In this document: piece after piece, positions 45,855 to 62,197 of the stretch
Numbering within the stretch: the stretch's first letter is position 1
Layout: every line of letters starts with the position of its first letter
Assembly (NCBI GenBank): GCA_963692865.2
Contig: OY843592.1
Location: 3,008,001 to 3,072,000 of the forward strand
DNA: 64,000 bases
Source: a bacterium
GTDB lineage: Bacteria; UBA8248
Direction: 5' to 3'
The notes under the pieces: generated by a model
Databases searched by the model: none
What the model was told of the DNA's origin: nothing
The model's input: the letters and a program-made list of their open reading frames with translations, nothing else
Made by a program: the position numbers and the translations under genes

Positions 45855-46756
45855 GTTCTGTCCGCCTCGCCGGAGCCGCCCAGGATTCCCTCGGGCCGGA
45901 AAATGAGGACGACGACCAGCACCATGAAGGCGAAGACGTCCTTATAGACGGCGGAGACGTATCCCGCCCAGAAACTCTCCAGAAGCGCCAGCAGAAAACC
46001 GCCCAGGAACGCTCCCGTGACGTTGCCGATGCCGCCCAGCACGGCGGCGGTGAACGCCTTCATACCCGCCACGAAGCCGATGTGGTGGTTCACGATGCCG
46101 TAGTACATCCCCACCATCACGCCGGCCACGGCGGCCAGCACGGAGCCGATGGCGAACGTGACCGCGATCACCCGGTTCACGTTCACGCCGACGAGCGAGG
46201 CCATCGTCCTGTCCTGCGCGGTGGCGCGCATGGCCTTGCCGAGCTTCGTCTTCTTGATGAAAAGCTGAAGAGCGGCCATGAGGCCCAGCGCCAGAATGAG
46301 GATGAAAATCTGGAGGCCGTTCACGTAGGCGCCGAAAAGCTGGAAGCTCCCGAGTTCGAGGAGATTGGGAAACGCCTTGTCCCGCGCTCCCTGCACCACC
46401 TGCACGTAGTTCTGGAGAAAGAGGCTCATGCCTATCGCGCTGATGAGCGGGGAGAGCCTCGGCGCGTTTCGCAGCGGGCGGTAGGCCACGCGCTCCAGGG
46501 TGATTCCATACGCGGCGCAGTAGACCATCGGGATGAGGAAGACGAGAACGATGCTCAGCGCCAGGCTCGTCTGCGTCAGGCCCATCGTCCCCAGCACCGC
46601 AAGGACGGCGATGCCCACGTACGCGCCTATCATGTAGATTTCGCCGTGGGCGAAATTGATGAGCTGCAAGATGCCGTAGACGAGCGTATAGCCCAGGGCG
46701 ATCAGGGCGTATACCGCGCCCACGACGAGTCCGTTCACCAACTGTTGCGCAAACAT
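45851..46756 (-). CDS. livH: Branched-chain amino acid ABC permease
   Basis: YALIALGYTLVYG, INFAHGE, KAFTAAVLGGIG. Confidence 0.94.
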   Translation of the reverse strand: MFAQQLVNGLVVGAVYALIALGYTLVYGILQLINFAHGEIYMIGAYVGIAVLAVLGTMGLTQTSLALSIVLVFLIPMVYCAAYGITLERVAYRPLRNAPRLSPLISAIGMSLFLQNYVQVVQGARDKAFPNLLELGSFQLFGAYVNGLQIFILILALGLMAALQLFIKKTKLGKAMRATAQDRTMASLVGVNVNRVIAVTFAIGSVLAAVAGVMVGMYYGIVNHHIGFVAGMKAFTAAVLGGIGNVTGAFLGGFLLALLESFWAGYVSAVYKDVFAFMVLVVVLIFRPEGILGGSGEADRT

Positions 46757-46783
46757 AGAAAAATCTTTACACGATCACGAGGC

Positions 46784-46828
46784 AAAAAAGAAGGGGAGGC
46801 TTTCGGGGGTGTTGCCTCCCCCCGAAAA
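46784..46828 (-). terminator. Intrinsic terminator between livK and livH, with an alternative competing hairpin
   Basis: Minus strand GGGGAGGC...GCCTCCCC-TTCTTTTTT; overlapping alternative stem TTTCGGGGG/CCCCCGAAA. Confidence 0.65.
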
Positions 46829-46851
46829 CAAATGAATTTCTCAATCGACAT

Positions 46852-47445
46852 ACGCTTTTGAAGTTCACTCCCCCCTTGAGGGGGAGTCAGTGAGCCGAGG
46901 GCGTAGGCCCGAAAGCGAACCGGTGGGGGGCGCTCTCGTTTTGTGTGGAATTTCGTCCCAAAAATCATACCCCCCCGCCGCCTCAAGGGGCTGTTGAAAA
47001 AGCCGGAGAGAGACAATTTGTTTGTAGGTCAGACATATATGTCTGACATATCATGCGACCCTGATTTTCGCCTCCACAAGGCGGGCCGCATGATATGCGG
47101 CCCCTACAAAAACCGTTCCTCCCCGGTCAGGTGAAACATTCGTTCATCAGGACTTTTTCAACAACCCCCTCAAGTGGGGAGTGTTTGGTCGGCGCTCTTA
47201 TAAAGGGAGAGTTATTCCTCCGCCCGCCTTGATCGTCACTCCGGCTTTCGCCGGAATGACGGCGGGGGCAAACCCCTCGGAGAGGAAAGCGGGCTCATCG
47301 GATGGCCCTGCGCAGATCGTGATGATTCTGTAGTGACCCGTCCTGATGGAGGCCTTTGCCCCGATGAAGACGAAGGACAACCACGGGGGGTTGTCCCTAC
47401 AAACCCTCTACCTGGATGGCCCTTGCCGGGTTTTTCAACAACCCC
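46852..47445. repeat. Composite palindromic intergenic array 2
   Basis: ACTCCCCCCTTGAGGGGGAGT hairpin at 46866; MITE 46987-47168; CGTC hairpin ~47234-47261; GTAG hairpin 47375-47400; IS-like end ~47428-47445. Confidence 0.8.
46987..47168. mobile_element. 182-bp MITE with IS-like terminal inverted repeats, carrying a GTAG-REP doublet
   Basis: GGGGCTGTTGAAAAAGCC ... GACTTTTTCAACAACCCC flanked by a CTCAA duplication (up to CCTCAAG); inner GTAG...CTAC cassette 47024-47107. Confidence 0.8.
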
Positions 47446-47486
47446 TTCCGCCTCCCCTCCCATGATTCAGCATGGCGATGCGCGCC

Positions 47487-48611
47487 CTAGTTGATCTGGA
47501 CGAATTTCGCCCCCTTCACCCGCCAGAGCACGTAGGGGCTCTCCAGGACGTCTCCTTTCTTGTTGAACTGGAGTTTGCCCAAAGACGTGTTCCAGGCCTT
47601 GCTGCGCAGGTGCGCCGCCAGCTTGGACCCCTTGGCGCCGCCCGTGGCCTGGATCGAGCTCAGAATCATGTTCATGGCCACGTAGCTGTAAATGGTGTAG
47701 GCGCCCACTTCCTTGCCGAAACGCTTGCGGTGTTTCTTGATGACGTTCTGGGCCGCCGCGATTTTCGTCTGATCCGGCGTGAACGTTATCAAGGTGCCCT
47801 CGGCGGCCTTGCCGGCGATCTTGTAGTACTCGTCCGTGACGATGCCGTCGCCGCTCATGAAGAGCGCCTTCATGCCGAGGCGCTCGCGCATCTGCTTCAC
47901 CAGCAGGATGGCCTCGGGGTGGATGCCGCCGAAATAGACGAGTTCGGGGTTTTTCTGTTTCGCGGCCGTAAGCACGGGCGTGTAGTCCTTGTCCCCCTGC
48001 ACGACGCCGCTGTAGAAGACGGCCTTGACCCCTCTTTTCTCCAGGAACCGCTTGGTCTCGTCGGCGAGGCCCTGGCCGTAGGTGGTCTTGTCGTGGAGGA
48101 TGGCGACCCGCTTTAGCTTGAGCGTGTCCACGATGTAGTTCGCCGCCACTTCGCCTTGCTGATCGTCGCGGCCGCAGACGCGGAACACCGTCGAGAAGCC
48201 CTGCTCGGTGAGCTTGGGGTTCGTGGACGCCGGCGTGATCTGGACGACGCCCGCCTCCGCGTACACGGTGGACGCCGGAATGGAGACCGAACTGTTGAAA
48301 TGGCCGACGATGCCTGCGGCGCCCGAGTTCACGAACTTGTGCGCGATCGACACCCCTTCCCTGGGGTCGTGGCGGTCGTCGCCCCAGAGGATGTCCACCT
48401 TCATCTTCTTGCCGCCGACGCTCACGCCGCCCTTGGCGTTCCATTCCTCGACGGCGATCGTTGCGCCGTTTTTCAGCATTTCGCCGAACGCCGCCTGATC
48501 GCCCGTGAGCGGACCGGCCACGCCGATCTTGATCGTCGCGGCGTGCGCGGCCGAACCCAGGAAGGCGGCGGCTGTGAGAATGGTCAGGGCATGGAATATC
48601 CTGCTGCGCAT
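47487..48611 (-). CDS. livK: Branched-chain amino acid ABC substrate-binding protein
   Basis: Signal peptide (AHA|ATIK), IGVAGPLTG, VGHFNSS, TPASTNP, RVCGRDDQQG. Confidence 0.92.
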   Translation of the reverse strand: MRSRIFHALTILTAAAFLGSAAHAATIKIGVAGPLTGDQAAFGEMLKNGATIAVEEWNAKGGVSVGGKKMKVDILWGDDRHDPREGVSIAHKFVNSGAAGIVGHFNSSVSIPASTVYAEAGVVQITPASTNPKLTEQGFSTVFRVCGRDDQQGEVAANYIVDTLKLKRVAILHDKTTYGQGLADETKRFLEKRGVKAVFYSGVVQGDKDYTPVLTAAKQKNPELVYFGGIHPEAILLVKQMRERLGMKALFMSGDGIVTDEYYKIAGKAAEGTLITFTPDQTKIAAAQNVIKKHRKRFGKEVGAYTIYSYVAMNMILSSIQATGGAKGSKLAAHLRSKAWNTSLGKLQFNKKGDVLESPYVLWRVKGAKFVQIN

Positions 48612-48777
48612 GGGGTTCCTCCTTCAGGTGATTGGAATTCCTGGAAACCGGGCGGGCCGCACGGCCCGTCATCGCGCCGTCATGCGACCCCGCGACGAGG
48701 CCGTGAGAAACAAGGTCATGTCAAGAATACCCTATTTCGGTTCGGCGGCAAAAGTTTTTTTGGGGAGACTTCGCGGA

Positions 48778-48972
48778 CGGCCGGTTGAAAAAGCCCCGCA
48801 GCGACCCCTGCAAACCGCCAACGCCTCTTTCTTCATCCTGAGTAGCCGCCGAAGGTCAAACGCGAGTGAGGAGGGGGGTTGGTTTTGCGGCGTCGGCCCC
48901 TACGGAATCATCCCGTCGCCGACCGGGTAGCGGAACAACCACTCCCCCCTTGAGGGGGCTGCTGAAAACCCC
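48778..48972. repeat. Composite palindromic array 3 upstream of livK
   Basis: IS-like end at ~48780 followed by a CATCCTGAGTAGCCGCC module homologous to 61074-61190; CCCCTACGG module shared with ~49838 and ~61699; ACTCCCCCCTTGAG-GGGGCTGCTGAAAA at 48941-48968. Confidence 0.7.
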
Positions 48973-49616
48973 GGCTTCGGCGGCGGGCGGCATGGAGGCT
49001 CACGCGGCGGAGAGGAAGCCCGCGCCGGGTCTTCGCCGCGCCTTCCTGCGGGCGGTTTGCGCGGAAATGCGGGGAGAGCCGCGCAATTCATCGCAGATGC
49101 GGGCAAATGCGGGGCGCAAAGAAAATTTTGCGGCCGTATCTGAGCCGCCCGCGCTCAGATATATGAAACAAGTCTTTTCATTACAATAAGTTGCGATATT
49201 TTCCCGCTTTCGTTTTTTATCGAAAAACCCCGTGAATTTATACAATTTTATCCAATTTCCCGGTATTTTACCGAAATTCCCGGCGCACCCCTCGCGCTCC
49301 GTCCCCGAGCGCGAAAGAGCGGTCCCGACCGCCATGAGAAGAGCCGCCGTCTTCACTCCCGCCGCATCACTGAATCCCATGAGAAAACCTCCGCGTCTTT
49401 CGGCTCCATTCCGAACCAAGCGGGAAAACCGCTTCCCCGCGACGCGCGCACGATAGCGCAGGACGGGATTGGGGGAGGAAGAGGAATTGCGGGGAAATGC
49501 GTAGCCGGGCGCAATTCGGGCGTTTCCCGAAAAAAGCGGTAAATCGCCGACCGGACGCGGACGCAATGCCGGGCGAAACGGGGGGTTTTCCCGAACAAAA
49601 AAGAGACGATGGTTTT

Positions 49617-49677
49617 GCAGGGGCCGTTCGCGAACGGCCCTCCCGAAAAAAACGAGCGCTTCACGAAGCGCCCCTAC
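49617..49677. repeat. GTAG-type REP doublet (REPIN-like)
   Basis: GCAGGGGCCGTTCGCGAACGGCCC ... GAGCGCTTCACGAAGCGCCCCTAC. Confidence 0.7.
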
Positions 49678-49697
49678 GGTCGCCATTCAGATTCGAT

Positions 49698-50879
49698 GTA
49701 GGGGTCGCATATCATGCGACCCGTATTGTGAAGACGAAAAGGCAGGGCCGCATAGTATGCGACCCCTACAATGCCATCGCGTTTTGCGTAGCAGGACAGG
49801 CGCGGTGGCCTGTGGGACAGCCCCGAGGAGAGGCCGGCGCTACGGGAGCATCACGTCGCCGACCGGGGATACATGGACTTTTTCAACAGCCCCTCATCGG
49901 TCGGAATCGATCACCGGCGTCATTCCGGCGAAAGCCGGAATCCATTTTCAAGCAAAATGACAATACGTCGGCTTTTCATCTCCCCGTCCTTGGCGCGAAT
50001 CAATCAGAAAATAAAAAAACAAGGCGAAACAAATGGATTCCGTCGAACCCTCATTCATCAATCGGGTTCGACCTCCCTCCCCGGTCGGCTCCGACGCCGG
50101 AATGACGGCGGTGTGATCCGGTTCAACGGATGCGAGGGGGTGCAGGGATCGCATATATGGGGCTGTTGAAAAAGCCCCCTCAAGGGGGGAGGTTCTTCTG
50201 CGCGTGTACCGAAGGGGCCGCATCCCTCTCTCTTTGATCTGAAACGACCCCCGTAGGGGTCGCATATCATGCGACCCGTATTGTGAAGACGAAAAGGCAG
50301 GGCCGCATAGTATGCGACCCCTACAATGCCATCGCGTTTTGCGTAGCAGGACAGGCGCGGTGGCCTGTGGGACAGCCCCGAGGAGAGGCCGGCGCTACGG
50401 GAGCATCACGTCGCCGACCGGGGATACATGGACTTTTTCAACAGCCCCTCATCGGTCGGAATCGATCACCGGCGTCATTCCGGCGAAAGCCGGAATCCAT
50501 TTTCAAGCAAAATGACAATACGTCGGCTTTTCATCTCCCCGTCCTTGGCGCGAATCAATCAGAAAATAAAAAAACAAGGCGAAACAAATGGATTCCGTCG
50601 AACCCTCATTCATCAATCGGGTTCGACCTCCCTCCCCGGTCGGCTCCGACGCCGGAATGACGGCGGTGTGATCCGGTTCAACGGATGCGAGGGGGTGCAG
50701 GGATCGCATATATGGGGCTGTTGAAAAAGCCCCCTCAAGGGGGGAGGTTCTTCTGCGCGTGTACCGAAGGGGCCGCATCCCTCTCTCTTTGATCTGAAAC
50801 GACCCCCGTAGGGGTCGCATATCATGCGACCCGTATTGTGAAGACGAAAAGGCAGGGCCGCATGATATGCGGCCCCTAC
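49698..50879. repeat. 555-bp tandem duplication: REPIN(72)-spacer(483)-REPIN-spacer-REPIN
   Basis: Units start with GTAGGGGTCGCATATCATGCGACCC at 49698, 50253 and 50808; identical ORF-track peptides at a 555-bp offset. Confidence 0.95.
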
Positions 50880-50918
50880 GGTCGGATCCCCCGGCTGCTG
50901 CGGAATATCCCCGCCCCC

Positions 50919-53900
50919 CTACCAGCGCAGGGAGCCGCGAAGCGCCACGCCGTGCGCCGGGTCGTCGTTCTCTCGCTCGCGCACGTCGCCCTCGACGCTC
51001 ATGCTCAGGCGCTCGCCCACCTTGAAGCGCCCGCCCAGGCGGTAGATCCCGCTCCCGCCCTCGGACACCGAGAGACCGGCGTAGGGCGTCAGCAGACCGC
51101 CCCAGGCGTCCAGCCCGTAGCCCACCTCCGCGCGCACGCGGGGGTCGAGACCCCGGACTTCCTCTTTCGCCAGGCGCGAGGCGTCCTTGAGACCCCACAG
51201 GCGCGCGGCCCCGCCGGCGGTCTCGCCCATTTCAGGCCGCACGGTGAGGGCGAGGCCCCGGCCCGCCTCCCCGGGCGCTATGCGGATCATGCCGCCCGCG
51301 CCCCAGTCCGCCGCGTCTTCCTCCTCGTGCGTGAGGAGACCGCGCGCCTTGAACTCCAGCGTGAGGCCCAGGGCCGGACTCGTGAAGCGAAGGCTCCCGC
51401 CCACCTCCACGCCCGCCCCCTCGTCCGCGTCGCCCCCGTCGTGGCGAAGGCCCGCCTCCACGGAGGGCCGGAACGCGCCGCCGTCCTTCATCGAAACCTC
51501 GCGCGAGGCCTCCAGCATCACCCGAAGGCGGGTCGCCTCCGCCGATACGGCATCGAGGCCGTCCTTCGCGTCCGCGTCCGTCTGCGCCAGCAGGACGTCG
51601 GACTTCACCGCCAGGTCGAACCCGCCCACCTTCGCGAGTTCGCCCCGAAGACCGAACGCGGCCATCCGCATCTCGATGTCGGTCTCGGCCTCGGCCTTCT
51701 GCCGGACGTCTTTCCTGTCCATCTCCAGCGTCATCTCGCCCCGGCCCATTCCCAGGACGCCCCAGGCCGTGACCCGCTCGTTCAGCGCGAAGCGCAGGTA
51801 GGGGTGCGCGCTCGTGAGCGTCGCCTCCACCCCGCTGCGGCCCCCGCTCTCGAAGCCCCCCTCGCCTCTGGCGTGAGAGAGCGCCACGCCCATGAGGACG
51901 GCGTTCTTCTCGTAGTCCACGCCCAGCATGGCCGTCGACACGTCGCCCTCGATGGCGGCCGCCCCGCCGCCCTCGAAACTCGTGCGCGCGCCCCGGCCCC
52001 AGAGCGACCAGCGTCCGCCCGGGACGGCCTCGCCCTCCCCGGCGGAGGCCAGGTGGAACGAACCGCCCCGCAGAAACTCGCTCATCGTCATCTCGCGGTA
52101 GGCGGGGGAGTCCTCCTCCCCGTTCGCCGGCCGGTTCGCGGCCCTTGCGCGCGCGAGGCCGCGGGAGTCGGTTCCACCATGCGTGAGCGAGGCGGACCCG
52201 AAGCCCGCGCCTTCTTTCGCGAGGTAGCGGTCCGGATCCGCATTCAGGTCCACGCTCCGGCCGCCGAGCGTCACCTTCGCCCCGCCCGGCGCGGGCGCGT
52301 TCATCCGGCTCGATATCATCTCCACCGCCTGGCTTCCCACCGCGCGGCCGAAGCGCGCCAGCCAGCCCCGCATCGCGGGGGGCGACCAGACGGGCGTCAC
52401 GGCGTCGGACGCCGGCGATGCCGCCCCCTCGCCGGCCGCGTTCACCGCGCGCACCTTGAACCGGTAGGCCACGCCGTTGACCAGGCTCGCGACGGTGTGG
52501 CGCCTCGTCGACGCCCCGCTGCCGGGAACGTCTCTCCAGGCCGTCTCGAAGGCGCCGCCCCCGGCCTGCTTGACGTATTGCCACTTCGTGATCGACGAGC
52601 CGCCGTCGCTCCCCGGGGTCCACGACAGCGCGACGCTGCCGTCGCCCGCCGTTGCGACCGGCTTCGACGGAGCGGAGGGCTTCGCGGCGGGCGTCAAGGC
52701 GTCCGTCGCCTCCGAAGCGGCCCCCGCGCCGAGCGCATTCACCGCGCGCACCCGGAAGCGGTAGGTAACGCCGTTGGTCAGGCCGGTGACGGTGTGGCTC
52801 GTCCTGTCCGGGCAGTCGGGTTCCATCGCCGTAACGCAGATGTCGGTCCAGACCGTCTCGAAATCGCCGTCCCCGGCCTGCTTGACGTATTGCCACTTCG
52901 TGATCGGCGAGCCGCCGTCGCTCCCCGGGGTCCACGACAGCGCGACGCTGCCGTCGCCCGCCGTTGCGACCGGCTTCGACGGAGCGGAGGGCGTCGAGAC
53001 GGGCGTCACGGCGTTCGTCGCCCCCGAAGCGGCGCCCGCGCCGAGCCTGTTCACCGCGCGCACCCGGAAGCGGTAGGTAACGCCGTTGGTCAGGCCGGTG
53101 ACGGTGTGGCTCGTCCTGTCCGGGCAGTCGGGTTCCATCGCCGTAACGCAGATGTCGGTCCAGACCGTCTCGAAATCGCCGTCCCCGGCCTGCTTGACGT
53201 ACTGCCACTTCGTGATCGACGAGCCGCCGTCGCTCCCCGGGGTCCACGACAGCGCGACGCTGCCGTCGCCCGCCGTTGCGACCGGCTTCGACGGAGCGGA
53301 GGGCTTCGCGGCGGGCGTCAAGGCGTCCGTCGCCTCCGAAGCGGCCCCCGCGCCGAGCGCATTCACCGCGCGCACCCGGAAGCGGTAGGTAACGCCGTTG
53401 GTCAGGCCGGTGACGGTGTGGCTCGTCCTGTCCGGGCAGTCGGGTTCCATCGCCGTAACGCAGATGTCGGTCCAGACCGTCTCGAAATCGCCGTCCCCGG
53501 CCTGCTTGACGTATTGCCACTTCGTGATCGGCGAGCCGCCGTCGCTCCCCGGGGTCCACGACAGCGCGACGCTGCCGTCGCCCGCCGTTGCGACCGGCTT
53601 CGACGGAGCGGAGGGCGTCGAGACGGGCGTCACGGCGTTCGTCGCCCCCGAAGCGGCGCCCGCGCCGAGCCCGTTCACCGCGCGCACCCGGAAGCGGTAG
53701 GTAACGCCGTTGGTCAGGCCGGTGACGGTGTGGCTCGTCCTGTCCGGGCAGTCGGGTTCCGTCGCCGTAACGCAGATGTCGGTCCAGACCGTCTCGAAAT
53801 CTTCGTCCCCGGCCTGCTTGACGTACTGCCACTTCGTGATCGACGAGCCGCCGTCGCTCCCCGGGGTCCACGACAGCGCGACGCTGCCGTCGCCCGCCGT

Positions 53901-56900
53901 TGCGACCGGCTTCGACGGAGCGGAGGGCTTCGCGGCGGGCGTCAAGGCGTCCGTCGCCCCCGAAGCGGCGCCCGCGCCGAGCCCGTTCACCGCGCGCACC
54001 CGGAAGCGGTAGGTAACGCCGTTGGTCAGGCCGGTGACGGTGTGGCTCGTCCTGTCCGGACAGTCGGGTTCCGTCGCCGTAACGCAGATGTCGGTCCAGA
54101 CCGTCTCGAAATCTTCGTCCCCGGCCTGCTTGACGTATTGCCACTTCGTGATCGGCGAGCCGCCGTCGCCACCCGAGGTCCAGAAGAGCGTCGCGCTGCC
54201 GTCGCCCGACACCGCGCCCGGCTGCCCGCCCGGCCCGGTTATGGAAGGCGCGGAGGGCGTCGAGACGGGCGTCACGGCGTTCGTCGCCTCCGAAGCGGCC
54301 CCCGCGCCGAGCGCATTCACCGCGCGCACCCGGAAGCGGTAGGCAACGCCGTTGGTCAGGCCGGTGACGGTGTGGCTCGTCCTGTCCGGACAGTCGGGTT
54401 CCATCGCCGTAACGCAGATGTCGGTCCAGACCGTCTCGAAATCGCCGTCCCCGGCCTGCTTGACGTATTGCCACTTCGTGATCGGCGAGCCGCCGTCGCC
54501 ACCCGAGGTCCAGAAGAGCGTCGCGCTGCCGTCGCCCGCCACCGCGCCCGGCTGCCCGCCCGGCCCGGTTATGGAAGGCGCGGAGGGCGCCCCGACGGGC
54601 GTCACGGCGTTCGTCGCCCCCGAAGCGGCGCCCGCGCCGAGCCTGTTCACCGCGCGCACCCGGAAGCGGTAGGCAACGCCGTTGGTCAGGCCGGTGACGG
54701 TGTGGCTCCTCCTGTCCGGGCAGTCGGGTTCCGTCGCCGTAACGCAGATGTCGGTCCAGAACGTCTCGAAATCTTCGTCCCCGGCCTGCTTGACGTACTG
54801 CCACTTCGTGATCGACGAGCCGCCGTCGCCCCCCGAGGTCCAGAAGAACGTCGCGCTGCCGTCGCCCGCCACCGCGCCCGGCTGCCCGCCCGGCCCGGTG
54901 ATGAAAGGCGCGGAGGGCGTCGAGACGGGGTTGGAGGGCCTCACGGCGTCCGACTCGGGCGAAGCGGCGCCGTCGCCCTCGCCGTTCACCGCGCGCACCT
55001 TGAACCTGTATTCCGTGCCGAAGGCGAGGCCGGTGACGGTGTGCTTGGCCCTCTCCGGGCAGTCGGGTTGCGTCGCCGTAACGCAGATGTCGGTCCAGTC
55101 CGTCTCGAAATCTTCGTCCCCGGCCTTCTTGACGTACTGCCACTTCGTGATCGGGTGGCCGCCGTCGCCCCGCGATATCCAGGTCAGCGCGACGCTGCCG
55201 GCGCCGGCGGTCGCGCCCGGCTTCTCCGGCGGGGGGGGCGGCCCGGTGAGCGCCAGTTCGATCGATTCGGGCGAAGCGGCGCCGCCGCCGATCGCGTTCA
55301 CCGCGCGCACCTTGAACTTGTAGGACGTCCCGTTGAACAGGCCCGTCACGGTGTGAGCGTTGAAGAATACTTGCCGGCAGTCGGGGAGCGTATCGTGATC
55401 CGAGGCCATCGCGCAGGCGTCGGTCCAGCTTCCGTAGCCGCCGTAGTTCCCACCGGGCGGCTTGGACGCGAAGGCGTATTGAAACTTCGTGATCCCCGTT
55501 CCGCCGTCGCTCGGCGAGAACCAGTAAAGATTTACGCTCGCGTCGCCCGCCGTCACCGGGTAAAACGAAATCCAAGACGGCGTACCGGGCGGCGCGGCGG
55601 GCGTCACGGCGTTCGATTCGGGCGAATCGACGCCGGGGCCGCCGGTATTCACCGCGCGCACCTTGAACTTGTAGGTATTGCCGTTAATCAGGCCGGTGAC
55701 GGTGTGGCTGGTCCTGTTCGGGCAGGTGGCGTCCTGTGAGGTCTCGCAGATGTCGCTCCAGCTGCCGTAGCCGTAACTCTGCTTGTAGGCGTACTGCCAC
55801 TTCGTGATCGCCGATCCGCCGGCTCCCCCCGAGGTCCACGACAGCGTGACGCTTCGGTCGCCGGGGGTCACCCCCGGCTTCGAGGGCGCGGGGGGCGTCT
55901 CGATCTCGATGAAGTCCGTCTTCGAGAAATCCCGGCCCTCGACGCTCTGGGAGGATTTCAGGGAGACGTTCCACCTGCCGTTCCGAGCCGTGTTACCGGT
56001 GTTGCCATCCTCGTCGTGCAGCGTCGTCCCGTTCAGGACGATGGTCGTCACGCCGCCGTCGTTCATGATGTAGTCGTCCCCGAAGACCTGCGCCATCGTG
56101 CGCCCGTCGAGGGTGAGGCTCACGTGGAGCGCGGGGGCGGTCTCCGTGGCGAGCTTCCTCGCCGCGCGAATCGCCGCGCCCGACGCCGCCCGCAGACTTG
56201 CGTCCTTCCCGATGACCACCTTGCCCCCGCCGGAGAGATACACCCCCGCCGCGTCGCCCGAGCCGCCCGTCACCGAACCGTTCACCGTCACCGTCTGTTG
56301 TCGGTAGCCGTCCGTCCCCAGCTTCGCCGCGAGCTCCAGGGCTTGCGTCGTACTGTTGAACCCGCCTATCCGGACGCCGCTCGCCTTCGCTCCCGAAGCG
56401 GTGAGCGAAGCCCCCGCGCCGATGGAGATCGCTATCGTCCCCTCGCCCGTCCGATGCCCGGCGTAGACGCCGTGGGCGTCCGCGCCCGTCGTCGTGACAC
56501 TGGTGGAGGCGCCCCGAACGTCCAGGTCGATGTCGCCGCCGGCGCCGGTATGGACGCCGTATGCGCCGTGGGAATCCGCGCCGCCCGTGGTGATGGAGGC
56601 GCCGCCCGCCACGTCGATCTCCAAATTGCCCTTGCTGTTCGAGCTTTCGTTGTAATGCCAGGCGAATATCCCGTGGGCGTCGTCGCCCTCCGTCTCGATG
56701 GAGGCGCCGTCAAGGCCCAGATCGACGTTGGCCGACTTCGTCGCCGATGCTATTCCATAATGCAGGCCGTATATCCCGTGGGAGCCGTCTTTCTTCGTGT
56801 TGATCGACGCGCTGCCCGCCACGTCGATCTCGATGTCGCCGTAGATGGGGCCGGTGTTCGAAAGTATGGCATGCCAGGCGGAAATCCCGTGGGACCTCTC

Positions 56901-57593
56901 GCCCTCCGTGGTGATGGAAGCGCTGCCCGCCACGTCGATGTCGGTGTCGCCCTCGATCGTGGCGGTTTGGGTGCTGTCATACTGAAAGGCGTATATCCCG
57001 TCGGCTTCGTCGCCCTTCGTGGTAATCGACGCGCTGCCCGCCACGTCGATGTCGATTTTGCCATCCGCTTTGAAGCCCGGACCCGAGCCTATGTAGTGGT
57101 AGCCGTATATCCCGTGGGAGTCGTCGGAATTCGTGGTGATCGAAGCGCTGCCCTCCACGAGGATTTTGCCGTCCCGTTTGGTCAGGCCGTAGACGCCGTA
57201 TCCTTCATTCGTGGTGGAGGTCAACGTGATCGAGGCGGCTCCATCCACGGTGATGTCGTAGTCGCCGTTGCCCTGGTGCCGGGCCCAGACGCCGTGGATA
57301 TTGCCGGCGTTCGGCGCCGCCGTGGAGATGACGCCGCCCGTCACGTCGATGTCGATGTCGCCCGTATTCTGGTGGTTGCCGTAGACGGCGTGGTTGTCCG
57401 ACGTGGTGATGTCGAAGTTCGTCAGGTCGATGGCCAGGTCGCCGCTCGTCGTCTTCACGCACTTTACCCTTTTCCCGGCCGTGGGGTTGCCCGAAGCGGG
57501 GCATTCCTCCTGCTGCTGGGCCGTAGCCGGCCCGGCGCAGAGGATCAGGGCGGCGGCCAGGGCGACGGCGCCCGCGAGAACCCGCGCACTCAC
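50919..57593 (-). CDS. Large autotransporter-like surface adhesin: signal peptide, beta-helix-like repeats, 11 Fn3 domains, C-terminal beta-barrel. True start probably ATG 57772, currently out of frame
   Basis: Hydrophobic ALAAALILCAGPATA; repeated DIDVAGSASITT.G..A.GIY; Fn3 motifs SVALSW...DGGSPITKWQY...TVTGLTNG..YRFRVRAVN; barrel with WSLWGRG and terminal LRGSLRW. Confidence 0.85.
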   Translation of the reverse strand: MSARVLAGAVALAAALILCAGPATAQQQEECPASGNPTAGKRVKCVKTTSGDLAIDLTNFDITTSDNHAVYGNHQNTGDIDIDVTGGVISTAAPNAGNIHGVWARHQGNGDYDITVDGAASITLTSTTNEGYGVYGLTKRDGKILVEGSASITTNSDDSHGIYGYHYIGSGPGFKADGKIDIDVAGSASITTKGDEADGIYAFQYDSTQTATIEGDTDIDVAGSASITTEGERSHGISAWHAILSNTGPIYGDIEIDVAGSASINTKKDGSHGIYGLHYGIASATKSANVDLGLDGASIETEGDDAHGIFAWHYNESSNSKGNLEIDVAGGASITTGGADSHGAYGVHTGAGGDIDLDVRGASTSVTTTGADAHGVYAGHRTGEGTIAISIGAGASLTASGAKASGVRIGGFNSTTQALELAAKLGTDGYRQQTVTVNGSVTGGSGDAAGVYLSGGGKVVIGKDASLRAASGAAIRAARKLATETAPALHVSLTLDGRTMAQVFGDDYIMNDGGVTTIVLNGTTLHDEDGNTGNTARNGRWNVSLKSSQSVEGRDFSKTDFIEIETPPAPSKPGVTPGDRSVTLSWTSGGAGGSAITKWQYAYKQSYGYGSWSDICETSQDATCPNRTSHTVTGLINGNTYKFKVRAVNTGGPGVDSPESNAVTPAAPPGTPSWISFYPVTAGDASVNLYWFSPSDGGTGITKFQYAFASKPPGGNYGGYGSWTDACAMASDHDTLPDCRQVFFNAHTVTGLFNGTSYKFKVRAVNAIGGGAASPESIELALTGPPPPPEKPGATAGAGSVALTWISRGDGGHPITKWQYVKKAGDEDFETDWTDICVTATQPDCPERAKHTVTGLAFGTEYRFKVRAVNGEGDGAASPESDAVRPSNPVSTPSAPFITGPGGQPGAVAGDGSATFFWTSGGDGGSSITKWQYVKQAGDEDFETFWTDICVTATEPDCPDRRSHTVTGLTNGVAYRFRVRAVNRLGAGAASGATNAVTPVGAPSAPSITGPGGQPGAVAGDGSATLFWTSGGDGGSPITKWQYVKQAGDGDFETVWTDICVTAMEPDCPDRTSHTVTGLTNGVAYRFRVRAVNALGAGAASEATNAVTPVSTPSAPSITGPGGQPGAVSGDGSATLFWTSGGDGGSPITKWQYVKQAGDEDFETVWTDICVTATEPDCPDRTSHTVTGLTNGVTYRFRVRAVNGLGAGAASGATDALTPAAKPSAPSKPVATAGDGSVALSWTPGSDGGSSITKWQYVKQAGDEDFETVWTDICVTATEPDCPDRTSHTVTGLTNGVTYRFRVRAVNGLGAGAASGATNAVTPVSTPSAPSKPVATAGDGSVALSWTPGSDGGSPITKWQYVKQAGDGDFETVWTDICVTAMEPDCPDRTSHTVTGLTNGVTYRFRVRAVNALGAGAASEATDALTPAAKPSAPSKPVATAGDGSVALSWTPGSDGGSSITKWQYVKQAGDGDFETVWTDICVTAMEPDCPDRTSHTVTGLTNGVTYRFRVRAVNRLGAGAASGATNAVTPVSTPSAPSKPVATAGDGSVALSWTPGSDGGSPITKWQYVKQAGDGDFETVWTDICVTAMEPDCPDRTSHTVTGLTNGVTYRFRVRAVNALGAGAASEATDALTPAAKPSAPSKPVATAGDGSVALSWTPGSDGGSSITKWQYVKQAGGGAFETAWRDVPGSGASTRRHTVASLVNGVAYRFKVRAVNAAGEGAASPASDAVTPVWSPPAMRGWLARFGRAVGSQAVEMISSRMNAPAPGGAKVTLGGRSVDLNADPDRYLAKEGAGFGSASLTHGGTDSRGLARARAANRPANGEEDSPAYREMTMSEFLRGGSFHLASAGEGEAVPGGRWSLWGRGARTSFEGGGAAAIEGDVSTAMLGVDYEKNAVLMGVALSHARGEGGFESGGRSGVEATLTSAHPYLRFALNERVTAWGVLGMGRGEMTLEMDRKDVRQKAEAETDIEMRMAAFGLRGELAKVGGFDLAVKSDVLLAQTDADAKDGLDAVSAEATRLRVMLEASREVSMKDGGAFRPSVEAGLRHDGGDADEGAGVEVGGSLRFTSPALGLTLEFKARGLLTHEEEDAADWGAGGMIRIAPGEAGRGLALTVRPEMGETAGGAARLWGLKDASRLAKEEVRGLDPRVRAEVGYGLDAWGGLLTPYAGLSVSEGGSGIYRLGGRFKVGERLSMSVEGDVRERENDDPAHGVALRGSLRW
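52388..55900 (-). repeat. Tandem Fn3-coding repeats (312-bp and 330-bp periods)
   Basis: Shadow ORFs recur at 52774/53086/53398/53710/54022 (step 312) and 54352/54682 (step 330); DNA is near-identical between units. Confidence 0.95.
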
Positions 57594-57772
57594 GCCGCGC
57601 CTCTTCTTTGGAGACTGGAGACTGGAGACTGGAGACTGGAGACTGGAGACTGGAGACTGGAGACTGGAGACTGGAGACTGGAGACTGGAGACTGGAGACT
57701 GGAGACTGGAGACTGGAATTTCATGATATCACGTTTCGGAGAGCGGATAAACGCCGGCTTGGAAGCATTCAT
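57590..57772 (-). CDS. Leader ORF / frameshifted 5' end of the adhesin, containing (QSPVSSL)5
   Basis: AAGGAGG (57785-57779) lies 6 nt before ATG 57772; its TGA overlaps the adhesin GTG (GTGA, 57593-57590). Confidence 0.7.
   Translation of the reverse strand: MNASKPAFIRSPKRDIMKFQSPVSSLQSPVSSLQSPVSSLQSPVSSLQSPVSSLQRRGAA
57609..57717. repeat. Perfect heptanucleotide SSR (TGGAGAC)x15 + TGGA
   Basis: Counted directly: 57609-57713 = 105 nt. Confidence 0.98.
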
Positions 57773-57797
57773 GACCAACCTCCTTGAGCGTCGTTCC

Positions 57798-57856
57798 CGA
57801 TTCGGTCACACCGCATGAAGCGAGGAAGCCGGAATCCCGGCTTCTGTGCCGAATCG
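57798..57856 (-). promoter_or_regulatory. Structured 5' leader upstream of the adhesin RBS
   Basis: Outer stem CGATTCGG(T)CACA/TGTGCCGAATCG encloses the hairpin GAAGCCGG-AATC-CCGGCTTC; AT-rich putative promoter at 57860-57970. Confidence 0.5.
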
Positions 57857-58293
57857 CTTGAATTATTTTAACCTCAACCCTAACTTCGTCGCGGAATTGG
57901 TTAAATTATTTTGATTTTTATATTTTTAGCACACTGATATGGCGCATTGCAATACGATCGTTTGATTAACGAGGGGGCGGGGCCGCGGCTTGTCCTCAAG
58001 GGAGGCCGACACCTTGCGGAAGGCGCGAAGCTTCGCAGGGCCGGATATGACCGCGGGGCAGGCGCGGGAGCCTCGAACAGGCGCAGGGGCGCCTGTCTCT
58101 ATGGGGGCGCATTCTATATCCGCAGGGGGCAGTCCCGAGGAGGAGCGGCCCCGGGTATGCGTAATTCCTCACTCTTCGAGGTTGTTGAAAAGGGAATTGT
58201 AGAGAATAGTTGACAAACATATTTCGTCAACCTGATTATACTCTTGCCGGCGAGTTGGGGAAACTGGATGGCTGGAATGAAAGGACGGAAGCA

Positions 58294-58491
58294 ATGACAA
58301 CCTACGAAACATTAAATCTCCTGTCATCGCTTCCCATGCCGATAGTTGTAAGTGTCGGCATTTATGCAATGGCTCAAGCAAACAACAAAAGAGCGGAGGC
58401 AGGCAAAAAAACTGAAGATGCGCTTACGGAAGCCATCGCAGGATTACGTGATGCCAATCGAGCCTTGCGAGAAATTTTGGAAAAGAAATAA
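58294..58491 (+). CDS. Small hypothetical protein (65 aa): N-terminal hydrophobic segment plus coiled coil
   Basis: MTTYETLNLLSSLPMPIVVSVGIYAMAQANNKRAEAGKKTEDALTEAIAGLRDANRALREILEKK; AAGGA upstream; AT-richer than neighbouring genes. Confidence 0.55.
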   Translation: MTTYETLNLLSSLPMPIVVSVGIYAMAQANNKRAEAGKKTEDALTEAIAGLRDANRALREILEKK

Positions 58492-58560
58492 TCCTGTGCG
58501 ACCCGGAATGCTTGCTCCGCAAAAAGATTCGAGATATCTGGTCAAGTAAAATTGATAACT

Positions 58561-58763
58561 CCCGTTGAAAAAGCCGGAGAGAGACAATTTGTTTGTAGGT
58601 GATAACCTCTCCTCGGGGTTGTCCCGCGCATATCATGCGGCCCGCCTTGTAGAGGCGAAAATCAGGGCCGCATGATATGTCAGACATATATGCCTGACCT
58701 ACAAAAACCATTCCTCGTCGGTCGCATCGAACCCTCGTTCATCAGGACTTTTTAACAGGCCCC
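58561..58763. mobile_element. Second copy of the 46987-47168 MITE with the inner cassette inverted
   Basis: Same outer arms (GTTGAAAAAGCCGGAGAGAGACAATTTGTTTGTAGG; CCTACAAAAACC...CGTTCATCAGGACTTTT); inner 58595-58702 matches 47024-47107 on the opposite strand. Confidence 0.85.
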
Positions 58764-58801
58764 CTTCAGGGCCGTTGAAAAAGTCCCGGACGAACCGCCC
58801 G

Positions 58802-61073: not shown

Positions 61074-62197
61074 GGGCTGGTCGAAAAAGCCCCGCATGCG
61101 ACCCCCGCAAACCGCCGACGCTTCTTCCCTCACCCTGAGTAGCCGCCGGGGGTCAAACGCGACTGAGAAGGAGCGTTTGTATCGAAGGGTGAAATTCGCG
61201 CCCACCGTAGAGGTGCGCCCCGGCGAACCCTCCCTCATCGGAGTTGCTGAAAAAGCCCACAGAAGGAACACAACGAGTTTCACTCCCCCCTTGAGGGGGC
61301 TGTTGAAAAAACCCTGATTTCGCGACTCGGCGAATGCAGCCGACCGGGAAGGGAGGGTTCGACGGTTTTGATCGTCATTCCGGTGTCGGAGCCGACCGCG
61401 GAGGGAGGTCGAACCCGATTGATGAATGAGGGTTCGACGGAATCCAGAGCCGATATGAATTTCGAGCCGCAGGACGACCATGAAAAACAATCATGCGAAA
61501 AGACGAATTCAAAAGCAAAGTCCCTGGATTCCGGCATGCGCCGGAATGACGGCGCGTAATCTCGATTGTAGGGGCCGCATATCATGCGGCCCGTTGCCGG
61601 AGACGCGAAAAAGGCTGGGCCGCATGATATGTCAAACATATATGTCTGACCTACAATGCTATCGCGTTTTGCGTAGCAGGACAGGCACGGAGGCCTGTCC
61701 CTACGGGATCATCACGTCGCCGACCGAGCGCGGAACAGGGTTTTTCAACGGCCCCAAAGGGGGGAGTGAACTTCAAAAGCGTGCGCGCAACTAAAATCGC
61801 TCCCGAGGACTTTTTCAACAATCCCATACACGCAGCCCTTGACGGGCGGCGAAAAGGCTGGGTCGCATGGTATGCGACCCCTACAACAGGAACGGCAATA
61901 ACGTCGGAATGACGAACAAAACCGTTCCACTTCATTTGGACAGATCGCGATCTCGGACGGGCCGGGGGCCTCTACGCTACGGACCCTCCTCCTCGATTGG
62001 TTTCATACACCAAATCTCGAAATCAGGACTATTTCAACAACCCCCCTCAAGGGGGGAGTGAAATTCAAAAGCGTGCGCACAACTCAAAATTGCTTCCCGG
62101 GACTTTTCAACAGGCCCTCATCGGTCGGGTTCGTGCCTTCGATACGCGGCTTCGCCGCTACTCAGGATGAGACAGAGAGGGCTTTTTCCACAACCCC
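61074..62197. repeat. Composite palindromic intergenic array 5 (1.1 kb, nested ends) between aroB and aroQ
   Basis: Left-type ends at ~61074, ~61240 and 61296; right-type ends ending at ~61755, 61825, 62046, 62117 and 62197; CGTC doublet 61373-61551; GTAG doublet 61568-61654. Confidence 0.85.

Follow-up and report, generated by a model that had tools for sequence, protein, structure and literature searches.

Two short repeats, A and B, in a 64,000-nt stretch of bacterial DNA (contig OY843592.1 of assembly GCA_963692865.2, positions 3,008,001 to 3,072,000; hereafter the window, equivalent to C1:3008001-3072000 of the genome studied, G000, which comprises 4.15 Mb in 8 contigs and is 97% complete) are probably two subfamily members of a MITE (miniature inverted-repeat transposable element) of the IS1182 type, with a doublet of repetitive extragenic palindromes (REPs) at its centre; in B, the core of that doublet would have been inverted between its stems. 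An initial annotation of the window, made from the letters and their open reading frames (ORFs), had read the pair as one MITE whose inner GTAG...CTAC cassette is flipped, or excised and reinserted, as a unit, with breakpoints at the GTAG that guides cleavage by a REP-associated tyrosine transposase (RAYT). The A/B pair is not evidence for GTAG-guided cassette flipping. Throughout, H1 denotes an 18-nt perfect palindrome, H2 a 29-nt hairpin, S and S' the 15-nt inner REP stems, and core the unit stem-spacer-stem.

Core orientation within a constant frame

A (46987-47168, 182 nt) and B (58561-58763, 203 nt) have outer arms that are collinear on the + strand. A repeat search paired 47021-47099 of A with 58627-58705 of B over 79 nt that are 96% reverse-complementary, far above chance, confirming the initial annotation as to both the collinear arms and the inverted interior. 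Read on the + strand, the two copies share a frame made of a terminal-repeat core, GTTGAAAAAG, a 21-nt left arm, GTAGG ... CCTAC, a 45-nt right arm and an inverted terminal repeat. The GTAGG...CCTAC interior extends over 47024-47107 in A and 58595-58702 in B, limits on which the annotation and our module map (Table 1) agree. The inverted match meets GTAGG/CCTAC at one end only. Its other end falls inside a REP stem (A 47099, B 58627), because H2 of B (58600-58628) has no counterpart in A: it occupies the place where the mirror position of A reads CGGCC. The annotation was thus right that B carries a different hairpin.

The closest relatives of B are five copies with the order left arm, H2, core, H1, right arm (Table 1). 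Against the copy at C1:1640676, B matches at 79/86 positions in its left part and 87/99 in its right part, as compared with 63/86 and 65/97 against A. The spacer of B fits that copy at 20/22 positions as the reverse complement and at 9/22 directly; across all five sister copies, the 21-22-nt spacer fits 19-20 of 22-23 positions only as the reverse complement, with collinear flanks. The inverted segment of B is bounded by 15-nt perfect inverted stems (58629-58643, 58665-58679), the boundary that marks a hairpin inversion. On these comparisons, B is best placed as a member of the H2 ... H1 subfamily with its core inverted between the 15-nt stems, and not as A with a flipped cassette. Three features produce the 79-nt match between A and B: the palindromic H1, placed left in A but right in B, the palindromic stems and the flipped spacer. 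Thus, the long inverted match is two independent differences and not one cassette flip. Of the proposal that cassettes flip as units within the MITE shell, it holds that the core points both ways; that B is a whole-cassette flip of A does not. Nor are the breakpoints confined to the GTAG repeat: B differs from its sisters by core inversion between REP stems, and breakpoints are scattered, the very pattern that the annotation had set against its own proposal.

Core orientation was scored genome-wide against the constant frame. With the left arm as reference and a match of at least 27 nt, 39 copies were obtained; 5 of them were without a stem and the other 34 were parsable, of which 31 had an orientable spacer once 3 forward calls of low score were set aside. 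Of these 31, 17 carry the spacer forward and 14 reversed, so that inner orientation varies among the genome copies, in line with the initial annotation. Ten combinations of left end, spacer and right end occur among the parsed copies: plain, reverse, plain (8 copies); H1, forward, plain (8 copies, the type of A); H2, forward, H1 (6 copies); plain, reverse, H1 and H2, forward, plain (3 copies each); plain, forward, plain (2 copies); and, with 1 copy each, H1, reverse, plain; plain, forward, H1; H2, reverse, plain; and H2, reverse, H1, which is B itself. In 11/11 copies H2 adjoins the left arm, irrespective of spacer direction (9 forward, 2 reverse). H1 lies on the left in 9 copies and on the right in 11, its side being independent of spacer direction, and the left arm is joined to at least five different right arms.

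Similar results were obtained when H1 was taken as the reference. Of the 135 genomic H1 sites, 98 were parsable: relative to H1, the spacer has one direction in 49, the opposite one in 40 and an unclear one in 9, and exact reverse-complement spacer pairs were found across both H1-relative classes. In another species, a free-standing H2 ... H1 doublet carries a reverse spacer (L124), and a further free H2 ... H1 doublet is present in a relative (L127). Twenty copies from relatives, chosen from matches collinear with A, were all forward (20/20), a choice that is biased to forward and makes this number unusable as a frequency.

A stem marker 4 nt from the spacer (A/G on one side, C/T on the other) tracks the spacer, with exceptions in 1/33 and 1/51 copies of the two largest spacer families. 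Since the marker follows the spacer, what flips against end hairpins and arms is the core, made up of the spacer and its inner stems; flipping of the loop only was rejected on the same counts. An apparent 87:63 split was traced to one spacer family with the opposite ancestral arrangement.

Two further ideas were considered and rejected. Spacer direction showed no link with the direction of flanking genes on a crude gene map (ORFs with a GC3-GC2 filter): 36 cases were concordant and 54 discordant (p = 0.07), and within 300 nt of the upstream gene the counts were 15 and 21. These counts speak against a one-way terminator, in which a REP hairpin and the T-run of the spacer would be selected for orientation by gene direction. 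A flip/flop of the parvovirus kind was dismissed because the repeats are internal to the chromosome and are not the ends of a linear replicon.

An IS1182-type shell around a GTAG-REP doublet

The 8-nt terminal-repeat core occurs 929 times in the genome (450 and 479 on the two strands) against about 21 per strand expected from composition, and forms 171 neighbouring +/- pairs 100-420 nt apart. A GGGG block stands just outside the core: at its four positions, counted singly, G is present in 147-164 of the 171 pairs on either side; further out, left flanks are C-rich and right flanks G-rich. Target duplication was assessed on the 116 pairs with GGG/CCC, with 1000 shuffles as null. Exact 5-bp direct repeats flank 37 of the 116, and 11 more have one mismatch, as against a shuffle mean of 3.65 and maximum of 11; control flank lengths of 3, 4 and 6-9 gave 0-4 matches, and inverted 5-nt flanks a single one. 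The left flank is CCCCC in 25/116 pairs and the right flank GGGGG in 23/116, so that the loop of a CCCCC-N5-GGGGG hairpin is a favoured target.

When end pairs lying far apart were searched for identical 5-nt flanks, two elements of exactly 1514 bp each were obtained, 100% identical to one another (Table 1). The ends of both insertion sequences (ISs) are perfect over 19 nt and open with the 15 nt of the MITE ends, and the 5-bp duplications of the two ISs are TTGAG and CTCAA. Their ORF of 480 aa matches NF033551 (IS1182 transposase; E 5e-103, 345 bits, cut-off 270) and also Pfam DUF772, DDE_Tnp_1_6 and DDE_Tnp_1. The repeats carrying the shell are small, non-coding and multi-copy, share their ends with a resident IS, leave a fixed 5-bp duplication and have empty sites in relatives. 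The shell of A and B is thus, as the initial annotation had called it, a MITE, with 16-nt terminal repeats, duplications and an IS1182-family IS with the same ends to its credit, and it is probably moved in trans by the resident IS1182-family DDE transposase. Each 1514-bp IS sits in the loop of a C-run/G-run hairpin; by inserting there, it forms such hairpins anew to its left and right, a possible explanation of the tandem nests.

A has four full-length copies elsewhere in the genome at 95-99% identity, by our reading each with a different duplication; therefore, the whole element, interior included, is the transposing unit. B is without a target duplication and without the six outermost bases of its left end, and looks like a decayed, old and immobile copy. 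A folds into one branched hairpin from end to end (-42.6 kcal/mol, z = -7.1) and B folds less well (z = -3.9). An Rfam search of 46700-47500 matched no family at E up to 1.

The interior, in the initial annotation a REPIN cassette (a REPIN being a REP doublet that forms a hairpin), is a REPIN-like, head-to-head GTAG-REP doublet that also occurs on its own. REP hairpins of the A/B type number about 310 genome-wide (620 strand-wise matches), those of a second type about 190 and H2 hairpins about 39. GTAG lies within 7 nt upstream in 295 of the 620 strand-wise matches (REP-i), and every REP type here carries it. In keeping with a REP dimer, the doublet consists of two inverted REP hairpins with GTAGG/CCTAC outside and the long-hairpin fold just described for A. 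When a terminal-repeat end within 170 nt is taken as the mark of a shell, shell ends flank 78 of the 234 A/B-type doublets on both sides and 86 on one side only, and the other 70 have none; conversely, a doublet of this type is present in 83 of the 171 shells. Free-standing doublets are also present in relatives (L124, L128). H1 occupies 135 genome sites, almost always between a REP stem and CCTAC; it reads A..T in 62, G..C in 56, both of which keep the palindrome perfect, and is mixed in 17. Among 193 orientable doublets, 150 are T..A/C..G REP pairs and 43 C..G/C..G, with no T..A/T..A, a strict bias against that homodimer. The window contains another doublet of the A/B family at 61563-61700, with H1 at its right end and a different right arm.

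Neither A nor B is present at the corresponding site in the same-genus relatives examined. At the A site, a 639-bp block (46806-47444) is absent in all three relatives aligned (G005, G008, G012), and match coordinates in other genomes of the genus agree with its absence. On its left the block is bounded by a partial terminal repeat and on its right by a full one, which ends at 47445; in view of these boundaries and of its absence as one piece, it is a nest of insertions. B lies at the right edge of a segment of about 10.1 kb (approximately 48630-58797) that is likewise absent in G005, G008 and G012, where about 165 nt stand instead. The A/B family is present at other places in those genomes. 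Further repeats lie in the 10.1-kb segment: at 49698-50880 a 555-bp tandem triplication that includes REP doublets, at 52369-55900 a long array of repeats of 312/330 nt, and at 57595-57745 a 7-nt unit in about 19 copies. EF-P, encoded next to B, is 73-76% identical to Nitrospinaceae/Nitrospinae proteins and 94% identical to that of an unclassified metagenome-assembled genome, which makes the organism an uncultured relative of Nitrospinota.

Table 1 Modules of A and B, sister copies of B and resident insertion sequences
Element	Feature	Position	Strand	Remark
A	5-bp target-site duplication CTCAA, left copy	46982-46986	+	right copy 47169-47173
A	left terminal inverted repeat, 16 nt	46987-47002	+	GGGGCT + GTTGAAAAAG
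A	left arm, 21 nt	47003-47023	+	
A	GTAGG tag of left REP	47024-47028	+	
A	H1, 18-nt perfect palindrome	47029-47046	+	in place of outer half of left REP stem
A	inner REP stem S, 15 nt	47047-47061	+	
A	spacer (loop)	47062-47083	+	forward; own mini hairpin
A	right REP	47084-47107	+	stem S', CGGCC, CCTAC
A	right arm, 45 nt	47108-47152	+	
A	right terminal inverted repeat	47153-47168	+	
B	terminal-repeat core and left arm	58564-58594	+	outer GGGGYT missing
B	GTAGG tag	58595-58599	+	
B	H2, 29-nt hairpin	58600-58628	+	of another REP type
B	inner REP stem S	58629-58643	+	
B	spacer (loop)	58644-58664	+	reverse
B	inner REP stem S'	58665-58679	+	
B	H1 and CCTAC	58680-58702	+	one substitution in H1
B	right arm and degenerate right terminal repeat	58703-58763	+	
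Sister of B		C1:439560-439770		
Sister of B		C1:1167870-1168080		
Sister of B		C1:1640470-1640680		
Sister of B		C1:2791580-2791810		
Sister of B		C1:3315945-3316150		
IS1182-family IS	1514 bp	C1:1499149-1500662		5-bp duplication
IS1182-family IS	1514 bp	C1:1724374-1725887		5-bp duplication

Possible routes to an inverted core

We propose that each MITE is a long foldback made of the 16-nt terminal repeat, an arm, GTAGG, an optional H1 or H2, an inner REP stem, the spacer and the mirror half. Transposition would copy whole elements, with a 5-bp duplication left behind and the loop of a CCCCC-N5-GGGGG hairpin as a frequent target. As a separate and rarer event, the core would be inverted within the constant frame. 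This may happen through template switching or recombination between the short inverted stems within the palindrome; alternatively, another of the ~234 doublets, aligned antiparallel, may act as donor in a short-patch gene conversion. A GTAG-directed nick is required by neither route. Most likely, the centre flips through ordinary palindrome recombination or replication slips and not through a special cut at GTAG; whole-cassette exchange at GTAGG is possible. Two left-arm copies (C1:861244, C1:2642145) lack one stem and the spacer, with the break inside a repeated REP half, which looks like deletion or slippage between the direct repeats that palindromic REPs create.

We asked whether the same copies could have arisen with no inversion in place. 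Free doublets would then have entered shells, or replaced those within them, either way round, H1 and H2 would have been added independently, and transposition would have amplified the resulting combinations. The abundance of free-standing doublets (70/234, next to 78 inside shells), the occurrence of the combinations as amplified subfamilies (8, 8, 6, 3 ... copies), the frequency of H1 (135 sites, nearly all between REP stem and CCTAC) and the presence in the genome of every intermediate on a gain-only path to B all fit such a history. It demands, however, that H2 be gained at the left-arm side each time (11/11) and that both end hairpins be regained with identical junctions around the reverse core of B, the frame of which is ~90% identical to the H2 ... 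H1 subfamily; moreover, an empty shell, with arms joined without a doublet, is not seen among the 39 left-arm copies. We regard this history as rather improbable.

A different route would be shuffling of modules by a RAYT: single-stranded REP/spacer pieces would be excised at C↓T sites (the arrow marks the cut) and reintegrated in the complementary strand, at the same or another doublet, giving an inverted cassette or core. The C↓T sites would include one that overlaps CTAC and one at the REP-spacer junction, so that the idea of the initial annotation is widened to several cut sites. A search with PF01797 at E 0.001 gave no match in this genome, 97% complete; relaxing it to E 10 returned one RAYT-like ORF, G000:C1:17496-18020 (-) (L001:1447-1971, minus), of 174 aa. 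It matches NF047646 at E 5.8e-18, with 65 bits below the NCBIfam cut-off of 80, and PF01797 with 26.2 bits above the cut-off of 23, and HLH and Y..NP motifs are discernible by eye. The ORF contains a REP of the second type in frame, between the HUH-like and Y motifs, and another copy stands just upstream of its start; thus, no cognate RAYT flanked by the A/B-type REP was found, the sole RAYT-like ORF being flanked by a different one. With a single weak match beside another REP, a RAYT of this genome is no more than a weak candidate, and nothing ties the events described here to the RAYT nicking at GTAG that the initial annotation had invoked.

Such shuffling would agree with the existence of the ORF, the GTAG on all REP types, the position of H1 and H2 always directly after GTAGG and a mirrored H1/H2 arrangement in relatives (L110, L113). 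According to the part of PMC3333891 consulted, TnpA-REP of E. coli makes single-strand cuts in vitro at REP feet (one site overlapping CTAC), at TGCC↓TGAT and in linkers and transfers strands, and the diversification of bacterial interspersed mosaic elements (BIMEs) has been modelled on this basis. In A, the stem-spacer junction reads CC then TGAT. The single match, its sub-threshold NCBIfam score, the other REP within and around the ORF, and a shell that itself moves by a DDE transposase and not by a RAYT all count against module shuffling. Furthermore, Y1 enzymes act on single strands, and we know of no in-place inversion of a segment by them. Taken together, we consider RAYT-driven shuffling unlikely as the origin of the inverted cores. 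The proposal that a RAYT cuts out REP cores or end hairpins and reinserts them in the opposite strand at C↓T sites of the REP foot (the CTAC-overlapping site and the CC↓TGAT junction) seems doubtful. If true, the genome would hold natural products of a BIME-diversification reaction so far seen only in vitro, a DDE-type MITE would be carrying hitch-hiking REPINs around the genome, and its constant frame would expose rearrangements that are normally hidden in near-symmetric REPINs.

Several points weigh against our preferred reading, a core inversion between the stems of B. Its history is not uniquely resolvable, since repeated site-specific gain of H1/H2 beside GTAGG could reach every combination. 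The linkage of stem marker and spacer makes the flipping unit larger than a bare loop, so that the core must break within ~11 nt of stem; these ~11 nt between marker and end hairpin are a narrow window for random recombination. L110 and L113, from two related genomes, read left arm-H1 ... H2-like-right arm, the mirror of B's interior with the spacer included, which may reflect whole-cassette exchange at GTAGG/CCTAC; moving H2 between arms needs either a joint at GTAGG or repeated site-specific hairpin gain right after GTAGG. A RAYT route for inversion of core or cassette is, by analogy, possible. Finally, four public runs contain the locus in the form of short-read unitigs; these show no differences over 57900-58593 and 58663 (or 58690)-59400, and none of those listed spans the interior of B.

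With the unitigs stopping at 58593 and restarting at 58663 or 58690, the orientation of B's interior might be an artefact of assembly or polishing in a repeat-rich region. However, both orientations recur in many copies here and in the assembly of another species (L124), and B has private substitutions in H2, spacer and H1, of which a collapsed repeat would show none; an artefact is therefore highly improbable. A switch operated by a local invertase is unlikely too, because the ~30 copies are dispersed and occur in both orientations.

Comparison with known systems

Two unrelated mobile systems, a DDE-transposon MITE and GTAG-REP doublets, are nested here in one small element. The MITE arms provide a fixed frame in which rearrangements of the near-symmetric REP doublet can be scored, giving a countable read-out of palindromic-repeat diversification by core inversion, end-hairpin exchange and arm exchange, and concrete substrates for deciding between a RAYT and plain replication or recombination. 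For annotation, the finding is a warning: the same repeat with its interior inverted is the rule in such genomes and not a special event.

Bacterial MITEs mobilised in trans by a resident IS include RUP, NEMIS/Correia, ERIC, Nezha and others, as described in the part of PMC3733652 consulted. The A/B family resembles them in being short (180-200 nt) and non-coding, in its IS-shared ends, fixed duplication and many copies, and in its long hairpin. Unlike those listed, its partner belongs to the IS1182 family and has only the first 15 nt of its ends in common with it; it also favours the CCCCC-N5-GGGGG hairpin loop and has a REP doublet for a core. A limited literature search found no paper on an IS1182 MITE with a REP-doublet core, which is not proof of absence.

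For REPs, the same partial source (PMC3733652) describes head-to-head dimers with GTAG outside and a conserved spacer that has a small stem-loop at one end, including heterodimers or hybrid dimers between REP families; dimers reach hundreds of copies, and in other bacteria some are embedded in longer palindromes. The A/B doublets share the inverted REP pair, the outside GTAG, the conserved spacer, the hundreds of copies and, for some, the longer palindrome. They are unlike REPINs in that many lie inside the shell of a DDE transposon, that REPs of a different family flank the genome's sole RAYT-like gene, and that the spacer occurs in both orientations relative to asymmetric ends. Inversion of spacer or core in REP dimers was not mentioned in the consulted part of PMC3733652, nor was it found in the limited literature search. 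With the BIME model for E. coli TnpA-REP the doublets have in common modular REP-linker-REP units with variable joints; that model, in the portion of PMC3333891 consulted, yields excision, tandem amplification and variants, and inversion is not described there.

The nearest parallel to the inversion itself is that of loops in perfect hairpins by interstrand template switching, a described class of mutation (PMC8794818, consulted in part) that is also known from plastid hairpins. There as here, the segment between perfect inverted repeats is reverse-complemented with no bases gained or lost and no footprint in the stems. Those cases concern single-copy RNA genes or organelle spacers, mostly with loops of 4-8 nt, whereas here the segment comprises 21-22 nt and part of the stem, and the element that bears it is mobile and multi-copy; gene conversion of one copy by another is therefore as good a route as template switching.

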